A DNA stretch of 64,000 nt, taken from positions 591 to 64,590 of the forward strand of contig JACRNW010000016.1 of NCBI GenBank assembly GCA_016214745.1, given 5' to 3'. Made by a program: the position numbers and the translations under genes. The notes below the pieces were generated by a model. The model did not search any database and was not told the DNA's origin. It saw nothing but the letters and a program-made list of their open reading frames with translations. Shown in pieces: positions 3,849 to 62,772 of the stretch; position 1 is the first letter of the stretch, and each line of letters begins with the position of its first letter. This stretch comes from Candidatus Falkowbacteria bacterium (GTDB lineage Bacteria > Patescibacteriota > Patescibacteriia > XYB2-FULL-38-15).

Positions 3849-4411
3849 GCATTTATCTAAAAAGGTTTATCTCTCAAAAACCTTACGAAAAAATAATTTA
3901 TTTTTTACGGCGAGACACGATTGTTTTTATAAAACAACTGGTTCTTTTTATTTTTCTCCTGGCAATTCCTGTCGGCCTTTATTTCTTTTTTAAAAATACC
4001 TTTCCGTCGCTTTTACAAAGTACAATTTTTTATCCGCTGCTCATGCTTCTCGCGAGCATTTATTATTTAACTGTTTGGCTCGTGGCCTTTACCGCTTTTA
4101 TTGATTACTATTTGGATTTTTGGGTTGTCACAAACGACAGAATAATAAATGTGGAACAGCGCCTCTTCTCCCGAACAATTTCGGAACTTGATTTATTTAA
4201 AATTCAAGATGTTACGGGCCAAAGCAAGGGTTTTTTAGAAACAATGTTTGATTATGGAAATGTTTATGTTCAAACCGCCGGAGCAACTGGACGTTTTAAT
4301 TTTGAAGAAGTGCCAAACCCGCGCGAAGTAGCCAGCAAAATCATCGTCTTGGCGGAAGAAGATCGAAAATATCACTTGAAAGAATCAAACAGTACTGGCG
4401 GAACGGTTTAA
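3845..4411 (+). CDS. Membrane protein with a bacterial PH (YdbT/DUF304-like) domain
   Basis: N-terminal TM helices plus a C-terminal GYLETMFDYGNVYVQTAGATGRFNFEEV segment typical of the bPH_2 domain. Start moved to MSIYLKRF (ATG at 3845). Confidence 0.55.
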   Translation: MSIYLKRFISQKPYEKIIYFLRRDTIVFIKQLVLFIFLLAIPVGLYFFFKNTFPSLLQSTIFYPLLMLLASIYYLTVWLVAFTAFIDYYLDFWVVTNDRIINVEQRLFSRTISELDLFKIQDVTGQSKGFLETMFDYGNVYVQTAGATGRFNFEEVPNPREVASKIIVLAEEDRKYHLKESNSTGGTV

Positions 4412-4425
4412 AAAATAAATTTAAT

Positions 4426-4479: not shown

Positions 4480-6306
4480 TTAATAAATTGTCTTCACTTC
4501 CACGCCAGTATAATAATGTTTTAAAATCTGCTCATATGTACTGCCGTTCAAAGCCATGCCGCGCGCCCCGCGAGCCGAGAGTCCGACGCCGTGGCCAAAG
4601 AGACTAAGTCCGGCACAATTCGGATCTGGGCGCGAAACGAGCCACGCTTTCCCCGTTCCCCACCAAACTTCTTCCCAGGCTCTTGTCCGTCCGTCACTTT
4701 GAGAAAAATACGGCGTGACTACCACTTCGCCATTGTAAGTCACCATCAATCCGCGAGTATCTTCCACGGCTTTCACAAAATTTGGCAAACGAATTTCAGA
4801 ATTGTAACCACGATAAACCTGATCATAAGAACTGGCGTTTAAATGAAAATTTCCCGCCGGGTGTTTGCCGCCAACATTTAAATTATATTGAGCATAAGTG
4901 CGGGCGGCGATGGCCAACGCTCGATGATATTCGGCCGGATTATTATTTGATGATTCAGCCAAACCCTTTAAATATGTTTCAAGCGGCAATTCATTAATCA
5001 TATAAAGTTTTGCCCGATCTTCGCTCCAGCGTAATTCCAAATTGCCGCGAAATTTATTGTCATTTAAAGATGTGTTCCAGGCCGGCCGATCTTCAAAACT
5101 TGTAATTTCAAAAATCGTATTTAAATCCGGCGGAATAAATTTAAGGTAAGAAAGATTGTCTCTAATTCCGCCATTCAAAGACGCCGAATAAGTTTTTGCC
5201 GTAAAATTGAAAGCAACGGTTGCCGTTACTCCGCCCGGAACGGAAAAAATTAAATTATTTTCAGCATCACGAACTTCAAAAGCGGTGTTGGCGCGAAGAG
5301 TTTCCGCGGTCGTGGTGTTATAAAGACCAACGCGGATGGTCGGTTCGGGAACTGCGGGTGTTGGCGCAATAATCGGCGTTTCAACCGTCCCGGAAATTTT
5401 TATTGGCAGAGAAACTTCTCCGCCAGTGATTGCCTTGTCATTATTCATCAAAACAAAAGTTGGGCTATAATCGCCGCCTAAATTTCCCGCGAGAGAAAAA
5501 CTAAAATATCCTATCTGGCCGGGCAAAGTCGCGGATGAAACGGCCGCCGGACAATTGATCGCAAGCCAATTCGTGTCGCGGAAAGGTTCGGTCGCGGTTG
5601 TTCCTCCGACGCAAATCTTTACCAAATTGGCGCCACTTATCTCCCAGGCCGTCTGGCCTATATTTTTAAAACCAACAGTAAAATTAGTTTTAGCGCCGCC
5701 CGCTAATGCGACCGCCTGGCTGCTTTGAATTAATTTTGTAGCTCCGAAACTTTCCGCCGCAGCCGTGACGGTGCTCGTTGGGCTGCTCGCGACCGGAGCT
5801 TGCGTGGAAACTGTTCCGTTTGTCACGTTAACCGGCAAATCAATCACACCGCCCGGAATCCAAGTCAAATTTTCCGCCGCCAATTTTAATTTAATTGTAT
5901 AAAATCCCAAAAGTTCCGGCGCCTTGAGCGCAAAACGAAGATGCGCCGTGCCGCCGGGTAAAACTTTCGTTTCCAACATTTTTGCCGGCTGTTCAATCGT
6001 ATACCAGTAAGGATGATATAATTGCCGACCGGCGCTATCCACATAAAGAGAAATATAATTGCTGTCGGAATTATACCAAGTCGCTGTTCCGGTATTTTTA
6101 AAAACCGCTTCAAAAGTTATCGCCTTGCCCGGAGCCAAAGTAAGCGAACCAAAACTCTGAGAAATTTTTTGCGCCGTATATCCCGCTACAGTTGCCTCTG
6201 CTTTTCCGGGGACAAAACCAAAAACAAAAGCCAGGATCGCCACCAACGCAAATCCTGACAAAAATTTTTGGAAAATAAATTTTCTTTTTTTGCTAATTTC
6301 CATCAC
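4480..6306 (-). CDS. SpoIID/LytB domain protein (cell-wall amidase enhancer-like) with N-terminal membrane anchor
   Basis: C-terminal SpoIID/LytB domain (...TPYFSQSDGRTRAWEEVWWG...GHGVGLSARGARGMA). N-terminal TM. Confidence 0.75.
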   Translation of the reverse strand: MMEISKKRKFIFQKFLSGFALVAILAFVFGFVPGKAEATVAGYTAQKISQSFGSLTLAPGKAITFEAVFKNTGTATWYNSDSNYISLYVDSAGRQLYHPYWYTIEQPAKMLETKVLPGGTAHLRFALKAPELLGFYTIKLKLAAENLTWIPGGVIDLPVNVTNGTVSTQAPVASSPTSTVTAAAESFGATKLIQSSQAVALAGGAKTNFTVGFKNIGQTAWEISGANLVKICVGGTTATEPFRDTNWLAINCPAAVSSATLPGQIGYFSFSLAGNLGGDYSPTFVLMNNDKAITGGEVSLPIKISGTVETPIIAPTPAVPEPTIRVGLYNTTTAETLRANTAFEVRDAENNLIFSVPGGVTATVAFNFTAKTYSASLNGGIRDNLSYLKFIPPDLNTIFEITSFEDRPAWNTSLNDNKFRGNLELRWSEDRAKLYMINELPLETYLKGLAESSNNNPAEYHRALAIAARTYAQYNLNVGGKHPAGNFHLNASSYDQVYRGYNSEIRLPNFVKAVEDTRGLMVTYNGEVVVTPYFSQSDGRTRAWEEVWWGTGKAWLVSRPDPNCAGLSLFGHGVGLSARGARGMALNGSTYEQILKHYYTGVEVKTIY

Positions 6307-42444: not shown

Positions 42445-45400
42445 ATGTCTCTTGCCCACAAAACTCAATCGCCAAAAAATTGGAGAGAAAGACCTTCTCG
42501 CCGGATTTTTGATAAATTAAAACTTGGAAAAGTAAAAGAATTTTTCGCGAATCTTTTAAATTCCATAAAAAGCAAATGGCCGAAAAATTTAGCAGAGACC
42601 GCGCCGCGGCCGAACGACGCTCCTCTCGCCCCCCTTGCCCCGCCCACTCCGTCTTCCGCCAACACAAGCAACTTTTTTTCTAAAATATTTCAAAAAATCA
42701 TTTTTATGGCAAAAAATCTTCGCTACCGAGTGAGAAGCCGCCGCCGCAAACTTGGATGGAACAAAATAGTTGGTTACGGCATCGCCGGCATTTTATTTTT
42801 AGTTTTAATTTTCGGTATTATGGGTGTCGCCTCGCTGGCCTGGTTTTCCCGCGACCTGCCTGATCCGGATAAATTGCTTGACCGCCAGGTGGCGCAAAGC
42901 ACGAAAATTTACGACCGCACCGGCGAGCACGTGCTTTATGAAATTTACAGCGACCAAAAACGCACCATGATTGAATTGACCGACATTCCGGAATACGTAA
43001 AACAAGCGACCATTGTCGCCGAAGACCGCGGCTTCTATACCCATCACGGTTTTGATTGGAAGGGCATTCTTCGTTCGGTTTGGGTAGACATTTTCAAGGG
43101 CCAAAAAGTCGGCGGCTCCACTATTACCCAGCAACTCGTGAAAAACGCCATTCTCTCTCCGGAAAAAACTTTTACCAGAAAATTCAAAGAACTGGCGCTT
43201 TCCATTCAGATTGAAAGAAAATTTACCAAAGACCAGATTTTAAAAATGTATTTTAATGAAATTCCTTACGGCTCAACCGCTTACGGCATCCAATCCGCGG
43301 CCCAAACTTATTTTGGGAAAAACGCCAAAGACCTGGATTTGGCCGAAGCGGCGCTCTTGGCCGCCGTGCCGAAAGCCCCAACCTATTACTCTCCCCGCGG
43401 CAGCCACACCGACGATCTGCTCTCCCGGCAAAAATATATTTTAGACGGCATGGTTGAAGAAGGTTATGTGAATAAAGATGAGGCCGAAGCGGCAAAAAAT
43501 GTTGATATTCTCGCCAGGGTTATTGATAAAAAAGAATCAATCACCGCGCCGCATTTCGTAATGTACGTCAAAGAATTACTGACGGAAAAATACGGAGAAA
43601 AAGTCGTGGAACAAGGCGGCCTCAAAGTTTACACCACGCTTGATTTTGATAAACAAAAATTCGCCGAAGAAGCCGTCACAGAAAATACTGAAAAAAATTC
43701 CACGAAGTACAACGCCTGGAACGCCGCGCTTGTGGCCATTGATCCGAAGACCGGACAAATTTTGGCTATGGTCGGCTCAAAAGATTATTTTGGCGAACCG
43801 GAACCAGAAGGCTGCGATCCGGGTTTGAACTGCAAATTTGAACCGAACGTGAATGTCTCGCTTCGGCTCCGCCAGCCCGGCTCTTCTTTCAAACCGATTG
43901 TTTACGCCACGGCATATCAGAAAGGTTTTACTCCGGAAACCATGCTTTTTGATTTAGTCACGACTTTTAAAACTGATACTAAAGATTACATCCCGCATAA
44001 TTATGATGACAAAGAACACGGCCCGGTTTCCATGCGGTCCGCGATGGCTGGTTCACTGAATATTCCGGCCGTGAAAACTTTGTACCTTGCCGGAATTGAT
44101 AATGTTTTAAATTTGGCGCAAGCCATGGGTTACACAACACTTAATGATCGCTCGCGCTTTGGCCTGTCGCTCGTTTTGGGCGGCGGCGAAGTGCGGCTTT
44201 TGGAACACACTGCGGCTTTCGGCGTTTTCGCGGCTGACGGAAAATTGCACGAAACCACACCGATTTTAAAAATTGAAGATGCAAAAGGACAAGTCCTTGA
44301 AGAATGGAAAGAAGATGCCGGCAAAGAAGTAATGTCAGTGCAAACCGCGCGGCAGATTCAGAGCATAATGTCTGACGATGCGGCCCGCGCCTATATTTTC
44401 GGCGCGCGAGGCCCGCTTACTCTTCCCGACCGGCCGGTCGGAGCTAAAACCGGTACGACAAACGACTGGCGCGACGGCTGGACCATGGGTTATACTCCGT
44501 CACTCGTCGCCGGCGTTTGGGCGGGCAATAACGACAACAAAGAAATGAAACGCGGCGCTGACGGCGTCTTTGTCGCCGCTCCGATCTGGAATGCGTTTAT
44601 GAAAAAGGCGCTCAAGGATACGCCGGTTGAGTATTTTACTCAGCCTAAACCGACTGAAACTAACAAACCAATTCTAAAAGGAGAAATCGGACCGGAGACC
44701 ATCGTAAGAATTGATAAACTCTCGGGAAAACTCGCCACGGAATTTACTCCGCCGACTTATATCGTAGAAAAAAAATTCCGCGAAGTTCATACCATTTTAT
44801 TTTATGTGAATAAAGATAATCCAAACGGCCCGCCGCCGGAAAATCCCGCGGCTGATCCGCAGTTCGCGAGTTGGGACGCGCCGATTCAAAAATGGGCTGA
44901 AGAACAAGGATATACAATTGATACCCAGCAAATTCCGTCTGGCTACGATGATGTTCATTTGCCGCAAAACAAACCAACCGTCTCTATCCTTTCCCCCAAC
45001 GCGAACGCCACGATAAATTCGCGCGAAACCACGGCTTCGGTTTCAGTTTCCGCCCCGCGCGGCATAATTTCTCGCGTAGAATATTTTGTTGACGGACAAA
45101 AAGTTGGAATGTCCAATACCGCGCCGTACACCGCGACGCTCTTGATTCCAAATTCTATTGGCAACGGCTTTCATACTTTGCGCGCCACGGCTTACGACGA
45201 TATTGATGATTTCAATTCCGCGGAAGTTAATTTTAATCTTCTGGCGGAAAAATTGCCGCCGCAAATTAATTTCACGGCACCGCGAAACAATTCGTCTTTT
45301 TACGCTTCAATGTTTCCGCTCACGATTACTGCTTCAACATCTGACTTATCTTCCATCGCTGAAATTTCTTTCTTCGCGAAAGGTCCCGGCGGGCCGGAAC

Positions 45401-45552
45401 TCTTAAAAACTTATTCCGCGCCGTCTGAAGACACTTTCACTTTCCGCTGGACTTCGGCGCCTCACACCGGCGACTTCCAACTCTACGCGGAGGTTACGGA
45501 CAAAGACGGCACCACAACCCGCAGCCGTCCAATCTCCGTGACGGTGTTGTAA
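42445..45552 (+). CDS. Penicillin-binding protein 1A (bifunctional glycosyltransferase/transpeptidase) with C-terminal Ig-like repeats
   Basis: GT51 motifs (EDRGFYTHHG, GGSTITQQL), TPase SxxK (GSSFKP), KTGT. The alternative start at MAKNLRYR (~42706) would remove the cytoplasmic tail. Confidence 0.85.
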   Translation: MSLAHKTQSPKNWRERPSRRIFDKLKLGKVKEFFANLLNSIKSKWPKNLAETAPRPNDAPLAPLAPPTPSSANTSNFFSKIFQKIIFMAKNLRYRVRSRRRKLGWNKIVGYGIAGILFLVLIFGIMGVASLAWFSRDLPDPDKLLDRQVAQSTKIYDRTGEHVLYEIYSDQKRTMIELTDIPEYVKQATIVAEDRGFYTHHGFDWKGILRSVWVDIFKGQKVGGSTITQQLVKNAILSPEKTFTRKFKELALSIQIERKFTKDQILKMYFNEIPYGSTAYGIQSAAQTYFGKNAKDLDLAEAALLAAVPKAPTYYSPRGSHTDDLLSRQKYILDGMVEEGYVNKDEAEAAKNVDILARVIDKKESITAPHFVMYVKELLTEKYGEKVVEQGGLKVYTTLDFDKQKFAEEAVTENTEKNSTKYNAWNAALVAIDPKTGQILAMVGSKDYFGEPEPEGCDPGLNCKFEPNVNVSLRLRQPGSSFKPIVYATAYQKGFTPETMLFDLVTTFKTDTKDYIPHNYDDKEHGPVSMRSAMAGSLNIPAVKTLYLAGIDNVLNLAQAMGYTTLNDRSRFGLSLVLGGGEVRLLEHTAAFGVFAADGKLHETTPILKIEDAKGQVLEEWKEDAGKEVMSVQTARQIQSIMSDDAARAYIFGARGPLTLPDRPVGAKTGTTNDWRDGWTMGYTPSLVAGVWAGNNDNKEMKRGADGVFVAAPIWNAFMKKALKDTPVEYFTQPKPTETNKPILKGEIGPETIVRIDKLSGKLATEFTPPTYIVEKKFREVHTILFYVNKDNPNGPPPENPAADPQFASWDAPIQKWAEEQGYTIDTQQIPSGYDDVHLPQNKPTVSILSPNANATINSRETTASVSVSAPRGIISRVEYFVDGQKVGMSNTAPYTATLLIPNSIGNGFHTLRATAYDDIDDFNSAEVNFNLLAEKLPPQINFTAPRNNSSFYASMFPLTITASTSDLSSIAEISFFAKGPGGPELLKTYSAPSEDTFTFRWTSAPHTGDFQLYAEVTDKDGTTTRSRPISVTVL

Positions 45553-45554
45553 AA

Positions 45555-46071
45555 ATATGACAAACTCCAATTTCCCTCTACCCTTCGGGGGGACAGAAAA
45601 AATAAAAAACACAGCGCCTAGTTCCCTCTACCCTTTGGGGAGAGGGTTAGGGTGAGGGGGCAAGAGGAGGGACAATGAAAAGAAACAATATCCCAAAATG
45701 CCGAACGCTACGGAGAAATCAAACCGACGCCGAGCGAAAATTATGGTCAGCAATCCGCGATCGCCAACTTGGTGGAATAAAATTTAGAAGACAATTTCCC
45801 GTTGATAAATACATTCTAGATTTTTACGCGCCGGAATATCACCTCGGCGTTGAGGCCGACGGCGGGCAGCATTTTGAAAACCCGAGCCAGAAATACGATG
45901 AAACAAGAACAACGGAATTAGCCAAACACGGAGTACGGATATTAAGATTTACCAATTTAGAAATATTAAAAAACCTGCGAGGAGTTTGTGAAAAGATTCT
46001 GGAAGTTACAAAAGAGCAAACCCCCTCACCTCAATCCTCTCCCCGGCGGGGAGAGGAGGAATAATCGCCGC
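45555..46071 (+). mobile_element. ~516-bp insertion carrying a DUF559 endonuclease-like gene, flanked by a 25-bp direct repeat duplicating the 3' end of the PBP1A gene
   Basis: Direct repeats CCAAT(C)TCCGTGACGGTGTTGTAAAA at 45529-45554 and 46072-46096 (24/25 identical; the first ends the PBP1A ORF). Internal GGGAGAGGG-type palindromes at both ends. Confidence 0.6.
45675..46064 (+). CDS. DUF559 (Vsr/restriction-endonuclease-like fold) domain protein
   Basis: YILDFY...LGVEADGGQH...HGVRILRF, the DUF559 signature. The C-terminal tail is encoded by the palindromic repeat. Confidence 0.7.
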   Translation: MKRNNIPKCRTLRRNQTDAERKLWSAIRDRQLGGIKFRRQFPVDKYILDFYAPEYHLGVEADGGQHFENPSQKYDETRTTELAKHGVRILRFTNLEILKNLRGVCEKILEVTKEQTPSPQSSPRRGEEE

Positions 46072-46132
46072 CCAATTCCGTGACGGTGTTGTAAAAGACA
46101 GAAAATTTTAATTAATAATTAACCATAAAACT

Positions 46133-46339
46133 ATGAGTACATTTGAATCAATAATACTCATCGTCGCACTCTTCTTTGGTATTTTGGCATATCTAAATTG
46201 CAGAAGACTTAAAAAAAGATTTGATATCGTAGAAAGAATGCTCGAATGGAAAAATATTTTAAATTTGGAGGAAAAAAGATGGGATAATTTACCAGACGAA
46301 GTTAAAAGAGACATCAAAGAGCGAAATAAGGGGCTTTAA
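46133..46339 (+). CDS. Small membrane-anchored hypothetical protein
   Basis: One N-terminal TM helix. Very AT-rich local block (~30% GC). Confidence 0.35.
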   Translation: MSTFESIILIVALFFGILAYLNCRRLKKRFDIVERMLEWKNILNLEEKRWDNLPDEVKRDIKERNKGL

Positions 46340-46344
46340 TTAAT

Positions 46345-46956
46345 ATGAAAGACGAGATTTACGTGAAATGCAAAAATGATAAGGCTTACTCACCAATAGG
46401 AGTGAGAAATCTCATCGCACAAGCCGAAAAAGAAAATGACGGCGATCTTCAAGCCGTTCTAGACAACAAACACAAATATAAAAATTTATGGGAGATGTGG
46501 CATGGACATTTTTTTGCTCTCGCTCTTTATAAACAGTTTGGTGAGGATTATAAATTCAATCTTTGTATACCCGAAAATGATCCTCCCGATTTATATTTTT
46601 TACAAGCCAATGGAGATGGCGCTTTCCCGGTCGAAATAATGGAATTATACAAGCCCGACGAAAATTTTAAAAACTACACTGACTTAGCAAAACATGTTTG
46701 GAATACAAATGGTCTAATGAATTATGAAACGTGTTATTTATTATTAGCTTCAAGATTAAACACAGACAAATTTAATGTTACAAAATTTATATCTGAAATG
46801 AAAAATTTTGACTGGAAATTTCAGCGAATTTATATATCTTTTTATACAGAGAAAATTTCGCAGTGGACATTCTTTGAGATTTTCCCACCAACCCCGCATA
46901 ACGACAAAAACTTCATGTCTTACAATCTTAACGATGATAAAAAATATTATTATTAA
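46345..46956 (+). CDS. Hypothetical protein (very low GC cassette)
   Basis: 203-aa ORF, no recognisable family. ~30% GC. Confidence 0.4.
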   Translation: MKDEIYVKCKNDKAYSPIGVRNLIAQAEKENDGDLQAVLDNKHKYKNLWEMWHGHFFALALYKQFGEDYKFNLCIPENDPPDLYFLQANGDGAFPVEIMELYKPDENFKNYTDLAKHVWNTNGLMNYETCYLLLASRLNTDKFNVTKFISEMKNFDWKFQRIYISFYTEKISQWTFFEIFPPTPHNDKNFMSYNLNDDKKYYY

Positions 46957-47779
46957 AAGCTCTGAAAATCTAGAAAAAATAAAATCAGCCATGGCGAAAG
47001 ACGGGCCGGAGAAGTTGCACGTGCTTTCTGATTTTGACCGAACTTTGCTCCGCGCATTTGTGGACGGACAAAAATCTCCGTCGGTAATTGCCCAAATCCG
47101 AAACGGAAAATATTTGACGCCCGACTACGCTCCGCGAGCGCACGCCCTTTTTGATAAATACCGCCCGATTGAACTTGATCCAAACTTAAGCCGCGCGGAA
47201 AAGTCAAAAGCCATGCACGAATGGTGGAGCGAACATTTTAAACTTTTAGCCGAGTCTGGTCTCACAAAACAGGTAATGCAGAAAATCGTGGCCACAAAGA
47301 CTTTGAAGTTCCGTGACGGAGCACTGGAGTTTCTTGATTTTCTGCACGAGCGAAATATTCCGCTTGTCATAATGAGCGGCGCGCCGGGCGATATGATTGC
47401 GATGTACTTGGCGCAAGAGGGCCGGCTTTATGATAATGTCTATATCATCGCCCCATTTTTAGAATTTGATGCCAGCGGAAAAATGATCGGCGTCAAAGAA
47501 CCGATTGTCCACGCCCTAAACAAATACGAAATTATTTTAAAAGACTTCCCTGTTTTTGAAAAAATAAAGAATCGGCAAAATGTTTTACTTTTGGGCGATA
47601 GTCTGGACGATGTTGGAATGGTGGAGGGATTTGATTACAAAAATATGTTGAAGATTGGATTTTTAAATGAAAAAGTTGAAGAAAATTTGGAAAAATTTAA
47701 AGAAACTTTTGACGTCGTCCTTCTCGGCGATCCGGGAATGGAATATATAAATAATTTACTGCGTGAAATGTTTGCCTAA
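46934..47779 (+). CDS. HAD-superfamily hydrolase, pyrimidine 5'-nucleotidase (UMPH-1)-like
   Basis: Motif I LHVLSDFDRTLL. Start set to MIKNIIIK (ATG 46934), overlapping the previous ORF by 23 nt. Confidence 0.6.
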   Translation: MIKNIIIKSSENLEKIKSAMAKDGPEKLHVLSDFDRTLLRAFVDGQKSPSVIAQIRNGKYLTPDYAPRAHALFDKYRPIELDPNLSRAEKSKAMHEWWSEHFKLLAESGLTKQVMQKIVATKTLKFRDGALEFLDFLHERNIPLVIMSGAPGDMIAMYLAQEGRLYDNVYIIAPFLEFDASGKMIGVKEPIVHALNKYEIILKDFPVFEKIKNRQNVLLLGDSLDDVGMVEGFDYKNMLKIGFLNEKVEENLEKFKETFDVVLLGDPGMEYINNLLREMFA

Positions 47780-47871
47780 AAAATATTATCAAAAACATCC
47801 GCCAGATCGACGGATGTTTTTTGTTTTATTATTTTTCCGGATCCCCGCCTTCGCGGGGATGACCCGTGGGG

Positions 47872-61422: not shown

Positions 61423-61438
61423 ATCTCCCAACTAATTT

Positions 61439-61639
61439 CCCCTCCCTTGATGGGAGGGGTAAGGGGAGGGTGAAAAAAATCCCTCGGCGTTTCCGCGCCA
61501 CTCCCTTTTAAAAAGGGAGATAAATTTCACCCCTCACCCCCGCCCGCCACGCAAGCCAGCTTGCTGGCGTTGCGGGCAGGCCAACCCTCTCCCTCAAGGG
61601 GAGAGGGATTTTAATATTTTCTCCCTTTCGAAAAGGGAG
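61439..61639. repeat. Cluster of five GC-rich palindromic hairpins (GGGAGAGGG / CCCTCTCCC family) between trmD and the DGR target
   Basis: CCCCTCCCttgatGGGAGGGG, CTCCCTTttaaaAAGGGAG, CCCGCC..GCCAGCttGCTGGC..GCGGG, CCCTCTCCCtcaagGGGAGAGGG, CTCCCTTtcgaaAAGGGAG. Related copies at 45572-45660 and 46037-46057. Confidence 0.6.
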
Positions 61640-61659
61640 AGTTAGAGAGGGATTTATCC

Positions 61660-61688: not shown

Positions 61689-61776
61689 AAAGCGTTGTCC
61701 TCATGTTGAGGAAACCCTGGGCCACGGGCAGTGGCAAAATGCTTTTCGGGCTTTCAGCCTGGAAGGAGATTCGGTC

Positions 61777-62655
61777 ATGGCAAAGTATCCGAACTGGACC
61801 GGAAGGATCGAGGCGCTTCTGAACGTGCTCGGCGGCGAGGAGGTCGTCGACGCGCTCATCGCCGGCACCAAGGTCGCGGAGATCAAGGATGCCGTGCGGA
61901 TGCTTTTCGACCGCCACGGTCGGTGCATCCCGCCGCAGGGCATGAAGGCCGAGGTGGTGGACGCCAATCGCGACTTCCACCTCACCCAGCCGGAAGTGAA
62001 CTTCGCCGAACGCTTGGCGCGCCTGACGCGCTTCCTCACGAACGGCGAGACGCCGATCTCGGCCGAGGAGTTCGAGCGGCGCACGGCGGAAATCGTGCGG
62101 CGGGTCAAGGGCGACAAGCTCTTGGTCAACCTCTTCTGCGGCGTGTTTCTGCCGATCGTTCTGCCGCAGATCGCGATCGGCGACTACGGCAAGACGCTCG
62201 ACCTGACGCTCCTCCCGGCCGTGGGCCGCGCCTACGAGGCCGAGTTCGCGGGCCGGAAGTTCTACAACCACCGGCAGGGAACGCTCGCGGGCGAGGTCAC
62301 GGTGGTGAAGGGCAGCCGGCACGAGGCGCTCGTCGCGGCAATCGCGGCGGGTCCGGTCGTGGCGCTGTATTTCCCGACCGCCCTGCAGGGGTTCTCCATC
62401 CCGGCGGACCTCGAGCAGATGGCGATGCTTCCCGACTTCGTTCTGCCCACCGGCGCTCTGGAACCGGCCGCGGCCATGGTCATGTACCCGGATGTGCTGG
62501 CTCGCGATGGCCAGACGCCCGGGCTGGACTGCGCGGCGCTGTCCTGGCGGGGCGGTTCGCTCTACTTCAAGGCCGACGGCGACAACCTCCTCTTCAACGG
62601 CGGGGGTCTGAGCGCCCGCGGCAACTACTCCGGCGGGCTCGTCGTCCTCGGGTAG
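61777..62655 (+). CDS. DGR target (variable) protein. GC-rich; the C-terminal ~36 codons form the variable repeat
   Basis: Start at MAKYPNW with RBS GGAAGGAGATTCGGTCATG. The 3' 108 nt (62545-62652) match the template repeat at 63048-63155 except at 16 adenine positions. C-terminus ...SWRGGSLYFKADGDNLLFNGGGLSARGNYSGGLVVLG. No signal peptide seen. Confidence 0.8.
   Translation: MAKYPNWTGRIEALLNVLGGEEVVDALIAGTKVAEIKDAVRMLFDRHGRCIPPQGMKAEVVDANRDFHLTQPEVNFAERLARLTRFLTNGETPISAEEFERRTAEIVRRVKGDKLLVNLFCGVFLPIVLPQIAIGDYGKTLDLTLLPAVGRAYEAEFAGRKFYNHRQGTLAGEVTVVKGSRHEALVAAIAAGPVVALYFPTALQGFSIPADLEQMAMLPDFVLPTGALEPAAAMVMYPDVLARDGQTPGLDCAALSWRGGSLYFKADGDNLLFNGGGLSARGNYSGGLVVLG
62545..62652 (+). repeat. 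DGR variable repeat (VR)
   Basis: 92/108 identical to the TR. All 16 mismatches are A in the TR versus G/C/T here (mostly G). Confidence 0.85.
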
Positions 62656-62734
62656 TGTCTGCCACTCGGATTTCGGTTCCTTGTTCCTTGGATCAAGTCC
62701 CTTGAGGATTTGGTTCTCGGACGCTTGACTTCGA

Positions 62735-62772
62735 CGGGGAACACGACTAAACATCGTGCGCCCCGTTTTTTT
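62735..62772 (+). terminator. Intrinsic terminator after the DGR target gene
   Basis: CGGGGaaCACGActaaacaTCGTGcgCCCCG followed by T7. Confidence 0.75.

Follow-up and report, generated by a model that had tools for sequence, protein, structure and literature searches.

A DUF559 nuclease gene between inverted BoxC/PIT/TM repeats and a duplicated PBP1A 3' end in Falkowbacteria: a putative homing-like cassette

We analysed a stretch of 64,000 nucleotides (nt) from a Candidatus Falkowbacteria bacterium (the window; contig JACRNW010000016.1 of assembly GCA_016214745.1, positions 591 to 64,590 of the forward strand), in which a small nuclease gene of the DUF559 family sits directly behind the gene for PBP1A, a class A penicillin-binding protein, and in which the 3' end of the PBP1A gene is found twice. 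The PBP1A gene occupies 42445–45552 on the + strand (the longest open reading frame, or ORF; the true start may be further downstream), matches the Pfam families Transgly (1.8e-63), Transpeptidase (1.2e-25) and Big_7 (1.2e-21) and ends with a TAA stop codon at 45550–45552. Its last nine codons (SRPISVTVL), together with the stop and 2 nt, form copy 1 of a direct repeat (45524–45554, + strand), which is the functional copy. Copy 2 (46067–46096, + strand) is an intergenic relic of the 3' end of PBP1A without coding function, in which the loss of 1 nt disrupts the upstream frame. The gapped alignment of the copies is identical at 29 of 31 positions with a single 1-nt indel and includes an exact 20-nt repeat, TCCGTGACGGTGTTGTAAAA, at 45535–45554 and 46077–46096. 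This 20-mer has no match in the 64 kb besides the two copies, even with three mismatches allowed, and none of 100 shuffles gave any match, so that none is expected by chance; the copies align locally with a score of 25.5, where the null reached 10.5 at most. The original prediction, made from the letters of the window alone, that the PBP1A 3' end recurs 517 bp downstream with a 129-aa DUF559 gene in between, and that the host protein kept its C-terminus through this duplication, therefore describes the locus correctly: the distance between the copies is 517 nt, the DUF559 gene is intact and copy 1 is an intact PBP1A end. Nor does copy 2 belong to a conserved downstream gene, which the prediction had named as the finding that would speak against it, as copy 2 is intergenic and the genes that follow it differ in almost every relative. 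The possibility that nothing was inserted here, copy 2 being a chance similarity or a conserved downstream feature, has nothing in its favour, is refuted by the shuffles, the alignment score, the recurrence in seven lineages and the unoccupied alleles described below, and can be regarded as practically nil.

The nuclease gene (45675–46064, + strand, 129 aa) is free-standing and starts 122 nt after the PBP1A stop. Its product matches Pfam DUF559 (PF04480) with 118 bits (cut-off 20.6; E=2.3e-34) and, over the full length, the NCBIfam YcjD model PRK09767 with 82.9 bits (E=1.7e-23; below the equivalog cut-off of 218), the only other Pfam match being MTES_1575. Exact look-ups of this protein and of the PBP1A of the window gave no record; a record with an identical DUF559 protein carries the name Candidatus Falkowbacteria. 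The spacer at 45661–45674 (+ strand) contains GGAGGG, which is probably the ribosome-binding site and precedes the ATG by 4 nt. The promoter scan returned no sigma-70-like promoter on the + strand between PBP1A and the nuclease gene, only minus-strand sites, and for the + strand neither it nor the terminator scan was informative. Since no + strand promoter is predicted and GGAGGG precedes the ATG, the nuclease gene is probably co-transcribed with PBP1A. The AF2 model of the protein (pLDDT 82, confident over the core) has a predicted PD-(D/E)XK, Vsr-like fold. Its best match in the Protein Data Bank (PDB) by Foldseek is the uncharacterised structure 3hrl (Neisseria NGO0050; E 1e-8, TM 0.90), which is also found by sequence search (E=3.7e-19, 40% identity), and the next is the catalytic domain of the homing endonuclease I-Bth0305I (3r3p; E=1e-4, TM 0.70). 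Residues E60, D62, H66 and D75 are invariant in 24 homologues and are candidates for the catalytic positions. A profile search of PDB sequences reached 3hrl and neither Vsr nor I-Bth0305I. The protein was considered as a Vsr proper and rejected as such, there being no match to PF03852 at E<=0.01, none to the Vsr structure 1cw0 by sequence or profile and no methyltransferase neighbour. The neighbours of the cassette are PBP1A and small ORFs without family match; PADLOC gave only weak nuclease-domain matches for the protein, Pfam no transposase domain in the cassette, and Rfam no family, introns included, in 45300–46400. Among 2.9 million viral contigs a single distant relative of the nuclease family was found, which makes phage carriage of the cassette unlikely. 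DUF559/YcjD is a very large family without an established role, although for one member, Caulobacter VsrA, a part in very-short-patch repair has been proposed.

What brackets this gene? The original prediction had seen GGGAGAGGG-type palindromes in its 5' flank and in its 3' coding tail. They are real, taking the form of a 36-nt inverted repeat (45625–45660 versus 46021–46056, 81% complementary) with a hairpin in each arm (DNA folds of −8.7 and −10.9 kcal/mol), but they are not private to this cassette, since they represent the known BoxC/PIT/TM repeat, which brackets DUF559 genes across phyla. The left module (45620–45660, + strand) consists of the hairpin CCCTCTACCC-TTT-GGGGAGAGGG, the spacer TTA and the G-tail GGGTGAGGGGG. 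The right module (46021–46058, − strand) reads CCCCCTCACC-TCAAT-CCTCTCCCC-GGC-GGGGAGAGG and overlaps the last ~14 codons of the nuclease, which it encodes (PSPQSSPRRGEEE); in four aligned relatives this stretch is near-invariant, with only a loop base varying. The general layout is CCCTCTCCCC, loop, GGGGAGAGGG, TTA, GGGTGAGGGG. A degenerate extra module, CCCTCTACCCTTCGGGGGGA (45567–45597, + strand; in repeat families D1 and D2), folds no better than shuffled sequence (z +0.5), and relatives carry from one to four or more module copies upstream of the gene. Compared with the BoxC/PIT/TM consensus CCCTCnCCCC..GGGGAGAGGGTTAGGGTGAGGGG, both 45625–45660 and the reverse complement of 46021–46056 show all the expected parts, namely a C-rich arm, a 3–5-nt loop, a G-rich arm, a short spacer and a second G-rich arm. 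This repeat, BoxC/PIT/TM_ECO, has reportedly been described by Bachellier and by Hoyne and Maher in 2000 as well. It is the 'intrastrand triplex motif' of Holder et al. (2015; PMC4666352), who found it in more than 260 genomes, tied it to local genome variability and rearrangement, and stated that 'we never found ... transposases or integrases' near it, with no endonuclease mentioned. The left module of the window at 45625–45660, CCTCTACCCTTTGGGGAGAGGGTTAGGGTGAGGGGG, differs from the E. coli type A sequence, CCCTCGCCCCTTTGGGGAGAGGGTTAGGGTGAGGGG, at 2 of 36 positions (by eye, Table 1 of PMC4666352).

One other module cluster exists in the 64 kb, at 61436–61654 just after trmD, and it resembles the cassette minus its nuclease gene: a sense module (61436–61476), a composite antisense module that contains an additional inner hairpin (61524–61612; DNA fold −26.4 kcal/mol, z −4.8) and a second sense module (61618–61654). 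It adjoins about 1 kb (~61700–62750) of 66–70% GC in a contig of 44% GC, containing an ORF of 292–331 aa (61660 or 61777 to 62655) with no Pfam match; this segment may have been inserted from a foreign source, or the metagenome assembly may have been wrongly joined here at a repeat that different phyla share.

The association of nuclease and repeat extends far beyond this bacterium. We collected 80 DUF559 loci from GTDB species of many phyla, of which 73 had enough flank to be scored. A sense module lies at most 150 nt upstream of the gene in 40 of the 73 loci, with a median of 8 nt between module end and start codon, an antisense module lies in the 3' coding tail in 43, and 34 have both. Both are present in each of the 14 loci whose protein is 55% or more identical to that of the window. 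As a background, these loci contain 18 modules over 451 kb. Every one of 34 homologous proteins inspected ends in the tail that the module encodes, PSPQSSPRRGEE or PHLNPLPxGER, and in lineages such as L069, L079 and L082 the hairpin sequences are different and the architecture is the same. No paper linking DUF559/YcjD to the BoxC/PIT/TM repeat was found in the literature search, and this repeat family appears to have a cognate DUF559 nuclease gene. In alphaproteobacteria the cassette sits at the 3' end of carA in three loci (L029, where it is between carA and carB, L043 and L059). Like PBP1A, carA is a conserved essential gene that serves as a landing site. In L059, 45–48 nt of the carA 3' end with its stop are present on both sides of the cassette, in an independent parallel to the PBP1A arrangement. 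A long duplication is, however, not a regular signature of insertion, and we dropped it as such: a search of 69 wider-family loci returned mostly module copies, leaving ~2–4 candidates for host-sequence direct repeats after module masking (L059 and L032, with weaker L064 and L047).

The ycjD gene of E. coli, which lies between fabI and sapF and has no left module, also ends in a module; the sequence of this module is canonical in PapM-32-1, whereas that of K-12 has degenerated. Of 5426 complete E. coli genomes, ~2000 lack ycjD. In K-12 (NC_000913.3, 1350300–1352300) a full TM is found ~170 nt downstream of ycjD. The ycjD 3' end was also considered as a case of target duplication around a hairpin and is not used as one, since K-12, compared with PapM-32-1, has the end of the gene duplicated in tandem over ~95 nt. 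Doublets of sense and antisense modules without any gene occur in E. coli, as they do in the window at 61436–61654. One of them is found between hrpB and mrcB (the gene of PBP1B), 13 nt after the hrpB stop and with 16 nt between its modules; it is absent from strain AR0349, without a clear flanking duplication, and in strain 07_3636 it has collapsed to a single hairpin. The rarity of host repeats among the 69 loci and the E. coli doublet without a clear one indicate that the duplication is not a regular by-product of insertion.

In a clade of Falkowbacteria the cassette, a unit of ~0.5 kb made of the YcjD/DUF559 gene and the inverted BoxC/PIT/TM pair, has a single position, directly behind the stop codon of PBP1A. 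Besides the window it is present in seven further lineages (L005, L006, L001, whose sequence is the same as L094, L169, L170, L172 and L173), where DUF559 directly follows PBP1A and is 73–88% identical to the window protein at the amino acid level. Seven of the eight lineages keep copy 2 just after the cassette, the exception being L173. Copy 2 is identical to copy 1 at 28 of 28 positions in L172, aligns over 38–41 nt in L006, matches at 21 of 24 positions in L001, with all three differences synonymous in the PBP1A frame, and is decayed in L170, where an extra module lies between the gene and the copy. In L169 copy 2 encodes SISVTVM*, the PBP1A end of the L001 type, whereas its own PBP1A ends in PISVTVL*. 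In the same lineage (4001–4420, protein P0009) the stop of DUF559 has been lost, and the frame reads through copy 2 to end in ...RSISVTVM at the duplicated PBP1A stop. Concerted evolution of the copies (T in L005, ATG in L001) was considered and dropped, since it does not hold across the eight lineages, the copies in L169 and L006 being different. Metagenome assembly seems to break or go astray at module arrays: in L005 an assembly gap (a run of N at 4879–4967) falls inside the upstream module array. L089 and L090 end inside PBP1A.

The original prediction had suggested comparison with relatives that lack the insertion, and such relatives exist. Two unoccupied alleles, L181 and L091, are nested in the clade and have a single copy of the PBP1A end, no cassette and no modules. 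L181, to which one of the two proteins returned by a strict search with the PBP1A C-terminus led, is the closest: its PBP1A 3' end is 87% identical in nucleotides to that of the window and its flanks are conserved on both sides. Its PBP1A gene stops with TGA, 6 nt ahead of the start of a 151-aa ORF. In the blastn comparison, homology with the window extends to 45565 and returns at 46335, and the window keeps, to the left of the cassette, 13 nt of the L181-like junction between PBP1A and the next ORF (AAATATGACAAAC, 45553–45565, + strand), a remnant of the state before insertion that places the left boundary at ~45566. The window segment 45566–46334, which has no counterpart in L181, includes a 68-aa ORF (46133–46339, + strand) with no Pfam or PADLOC match. 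This ORF also follows the cassette in L005 and L006 and is located elsewhere in L091 and L169, and is only a possible part of the cassette unit. It belongs to a low-GC block (46100–46950, 27–36% GC) that also holds a 203-aa ORF, neither ORF having a Pfam or PADLOC match. In L091, which is 78–81% identical to the window over the PBP1A 3' end and so about as close as L006, L169, L172 and L173, the single copy (CCCATTTCCGTGACGGTGTTGTAA) is followed by unrelated DNA. In the more distant L092, PBP1A is followed by a terminator-like GC hairpin with a T-run (by eye) and convergent dnaN, with no cargo in between.

In the relatives (L001, L005, L006, L091, L169, L170, L172, L173 and L181) the whole interval between PBP1A and dnaN, 45552–47870 in the window, is hypervariable and filled with different cargo by lineage, namely genes for UMPH-1, Fic, a methyltransferase, an Asp-protease-like protein, HAD or VIT1-like proteins. 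The DNA after copy 2 differs in nearly every one of them, with the change starting right after copy 2. One alternative is site-specific integration with a recombinase acting in trans, the two copies being attL and attR cores at a gene 3' end as in genomic islands. Att cores are typically direct repeats of this kind, 20–45 nt long and reaching over a gene's 3' end, and a hypervariable zone of Fic, methyltransferase, HAD, VIT1 and other genes 3' of PBP1A also fits. The repeats, however, enclose the 0.5-kb cassette alone and not the variable cargo, and no tyrosine or serine recombinase is found among the called genes of the eight occupied loci, which makes this explanation very improbable.

The histories of cassette and host gene disagree, and they do so in both directions. 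Between the window and L001 the identity at third codon positions is 50.6% for PBP1A (766 codons) and 73.0% for DUF559 (115 codons), whereas between the window and L005 it is 75.6% for PBP1A and 69.6% for DUF559 over the same numbers of codons. DUF559 identity stays at ~84% among the window, L005, L006 and L001 regardless of the distance between the hosts. That L001 is the distant lineage agrees with dnaN and ROK, which are ~75% identical to the window in L001 and 87–89% in L005, and in the alignment of the window with L001 identity climbs from ~60% to ~85% at the left module. Conversely, the PBP1A ends of L169 and L006 are 91% identical in nucleotides and their cassettes only 81%. The L001 arrangement is recovered on six contigs, and each of the four listed is from a different sample, which makes a chimeric assembly an unlikely source. 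These discordant identities, together with the foreign-type copy 2 of L169, indicate that the cassette, sometimes with copy 2, has moved between lineages and always landed at the PBP1A end. As some copies are of foreign type, copy 2 would travel with the cassette and would not always be made from the local target. For the same reason the '25-bp target-site duplication' of the original prediction stands as a duplication and not as a target-site duplication in the transposon sense, since some copy 2s carry the PBP1A end of another lineage; a length that is not fixed, from 24 to 48 nt, also speaks against a regular target-site duplication.

A classical cut-or-copy transposon would have the modules as its terminal inverted repeats, DUF559 as its transposase and the 25–45-nt repeat as a true target-site duplication left by widely staggered cuts. 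The 36-nt inverted pair does bound the nuclease gene, host-sequence direct repeats flank the unit here and in L059, and the gene-less doublets of E. coli and the window resemble miniature derivatives. Against this, the protein has only 129 aa and belongs to a fold family for which no transposase or integrase chemistry is known, the repeat length varies as above with host repeats absent at most of the 69 loci, the E. coli doublet has no clear duplication, copy 2 can be of foreign type, and all eight lineages have the unit at one site instead of scattered sites. We regard such a transposon as improbable.

Another alternative is housekeeping of the REP/RAYT kind, in which a domesticated and essentially vertically inherited DUF559 protein maintains or spreads the modules and the PBP1A-end duplication arose from replication stalling or slippage at them. 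In its favour, modules also occur without the gene (at 61436–61654 in the window, 18 times in 451 kb of the other loci and in 23 copies in E. coli K-12; PMC4666352), their number varies among relatives, the ~95-nt tandem duplication at the K-12 ycjD 3' end adjoins a module, and Holder et al. associated the motif with local rearrangement (PMC4666352). It does not sit well with phylogenies of host and cassette that conflict in both directions, with the foreign-type copy 2 of L169 or with the patchy presence of the cassette among close relatives, and slippage does not account for the constant site at the PBP1A end. We therefore consider it unlikely, if the most serious of the alternatives.

The explanation that we favour, and consider somewhat more probable than all others together, is that of a laterally exchanged, site-specific, selfish homing-like cassette at the PBP1A 3' end. 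This is in line with the small selfish or homing nuclease cassette of the original prediction, which gains support from the unoccupied alleles, the shared site, the conflicting phylogenies and the fold match to I-Bth0305I. How could such a cassette spread? The nuclease, whose cleavage activity and target we infer, would break the unoccupied PBP1A end, at or near the repeated sequence, or its own modules, and repair of the break from an occupied allele would copy the cassette in. PBP1A, an essential gene, stays intact because its last ~9 codons and stop are left on both sides of the cassette. Copy 2 would then serve as a portable right-hand homology arm for capture of the second DNA end: because the DNA after PBP1A differs in nearly every genome, it would supply the only homology available on the right side. 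Such a role would explain why copy 2 is retained over ~25–35% host divergence, why variability begins right after it, and why it can be of foreign type and still keeps resembling a PBP1A end.

Several observations weigh against this explanation. An occupied allele contains the presumed target twice and should itself be open to cleavage, unless the recognised site spans the junction. L173 has the cassette and no copy 2. No unoccupied allele has perfectly contiguous flanks, as in L181 the 151-aa ORF takes the place of the cassette and the 68-aa ORF. The discordance of histories rests on a gene of 115 codons, and the 64-kb window of this genome contains one cassette. In the wider family, host-sequence direct repeats are confined to the few candidates named above, and the hrpB-mrcB doublet missing from strain AR0349 left no clear duplication. 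To our knowledge, cleavage activity or a target has been established for no YcjD-type DUF559 protein.

It is possible, and we suggest it tentatively, that BoxC/PIT/TM modules are the cis-acting ends of autonomous YcjD/DUF559 cassettes that span the phyla, that gene-less doublets are their non-autonomous derivatives, and that the Falkowbacteria cassette is an active one, homing to the PBP1A end with a built-in homology arm. The repeats have been catalogued for ~30 years and linked to instability of the genome, but neither an enzyme nor a role in mobility had been assigned to them. A fixed physical link between repeat and nuclease across many phyla allows the function of both to be tested: one would expect recognition, nicking or mobilisation of the modules by the nuclease, and in E. 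coli, which has ycjD and 23 modules, experiments could begin at once. The duplicated gene end hints at a way in which a very small selfish element may enter genomes with which it shares one flank only. The apparent effects of modules on assembly, as at the N-gap of L005 and the island of foreign GC beside the cluster in the window, also bear on the quality of metagenome-assembled genomes.

How does the cassette compare with known systems? Its modules share with BoxC/PIT/TM the three-segment design, a near-identical sequence, the arrangement in sense-plus-antisense doublets and the link to variable loci; in the literature, however, BoxC/PIT/TM is an orphan repeat without an enzyme, whereas here a nuclease gene lies between the inverted pair. 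With I-Bth0305I, an endonuclease of the EDxHD type, the protein has in common the Vsr-like PD-(D/E)XK core seen in the Foldseek match, without any match at the sequence level, and Steczkiewicz (2012) placed I-Bth0305I with DUF559. Like EDxHD-type elements, the cassette is present or absent by lineage at one site of a conserved gene, and this sporadic presence goes with a history unlike that of the host gene. I-Bth0305I, however, resides in a group I intron and its relatives in inteins, whereas the window gene is free-standing after a stop codon, bracketed by structured repeats and accompanied by a duplicated host gene end. E. coli YcjD and Neisseria NGO0050 (3hrl) are uncharacterised DUF559 proteins of the same family, and E. 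coli ycjD, in contrast to the window cassette, is not at a PBP gene. The free-standing homing endonucleases of T-even phages (Seg and Mob, 'intronless homing') lie between genes, beside a conserved gene, and spread with flanking DNA to unoccupied genomes. The nuclease gene of the cassette is likewise intergenic and beside a conserved gene, but Seg and Mob belong to the GIY-YIG and HNH families and have neither flanking repeat modules nor a duplicated gene end. In REP/RAYT systems (REPINs) a nuclease-type gene is flanked by inverted hairpin repeats that are dispersed genome-wide, often as doublets, and the window gene, with an inverted pair of hairpin modules around it, is alike in this flanking. 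RAYT, however, is a Y1 HUH (IS200/IS605-like) transposase and not a PD-(D/E)XK nuclease, and RAYTs are described as vertically inherited, whereas the cassette shows signs of lateral exchange. The cassette resembles two known kinds, homing cassettes and REP/RAYT-like pairs, and, more widely, an orphan repeat known for decades appears to have a nuclease gene of its own.

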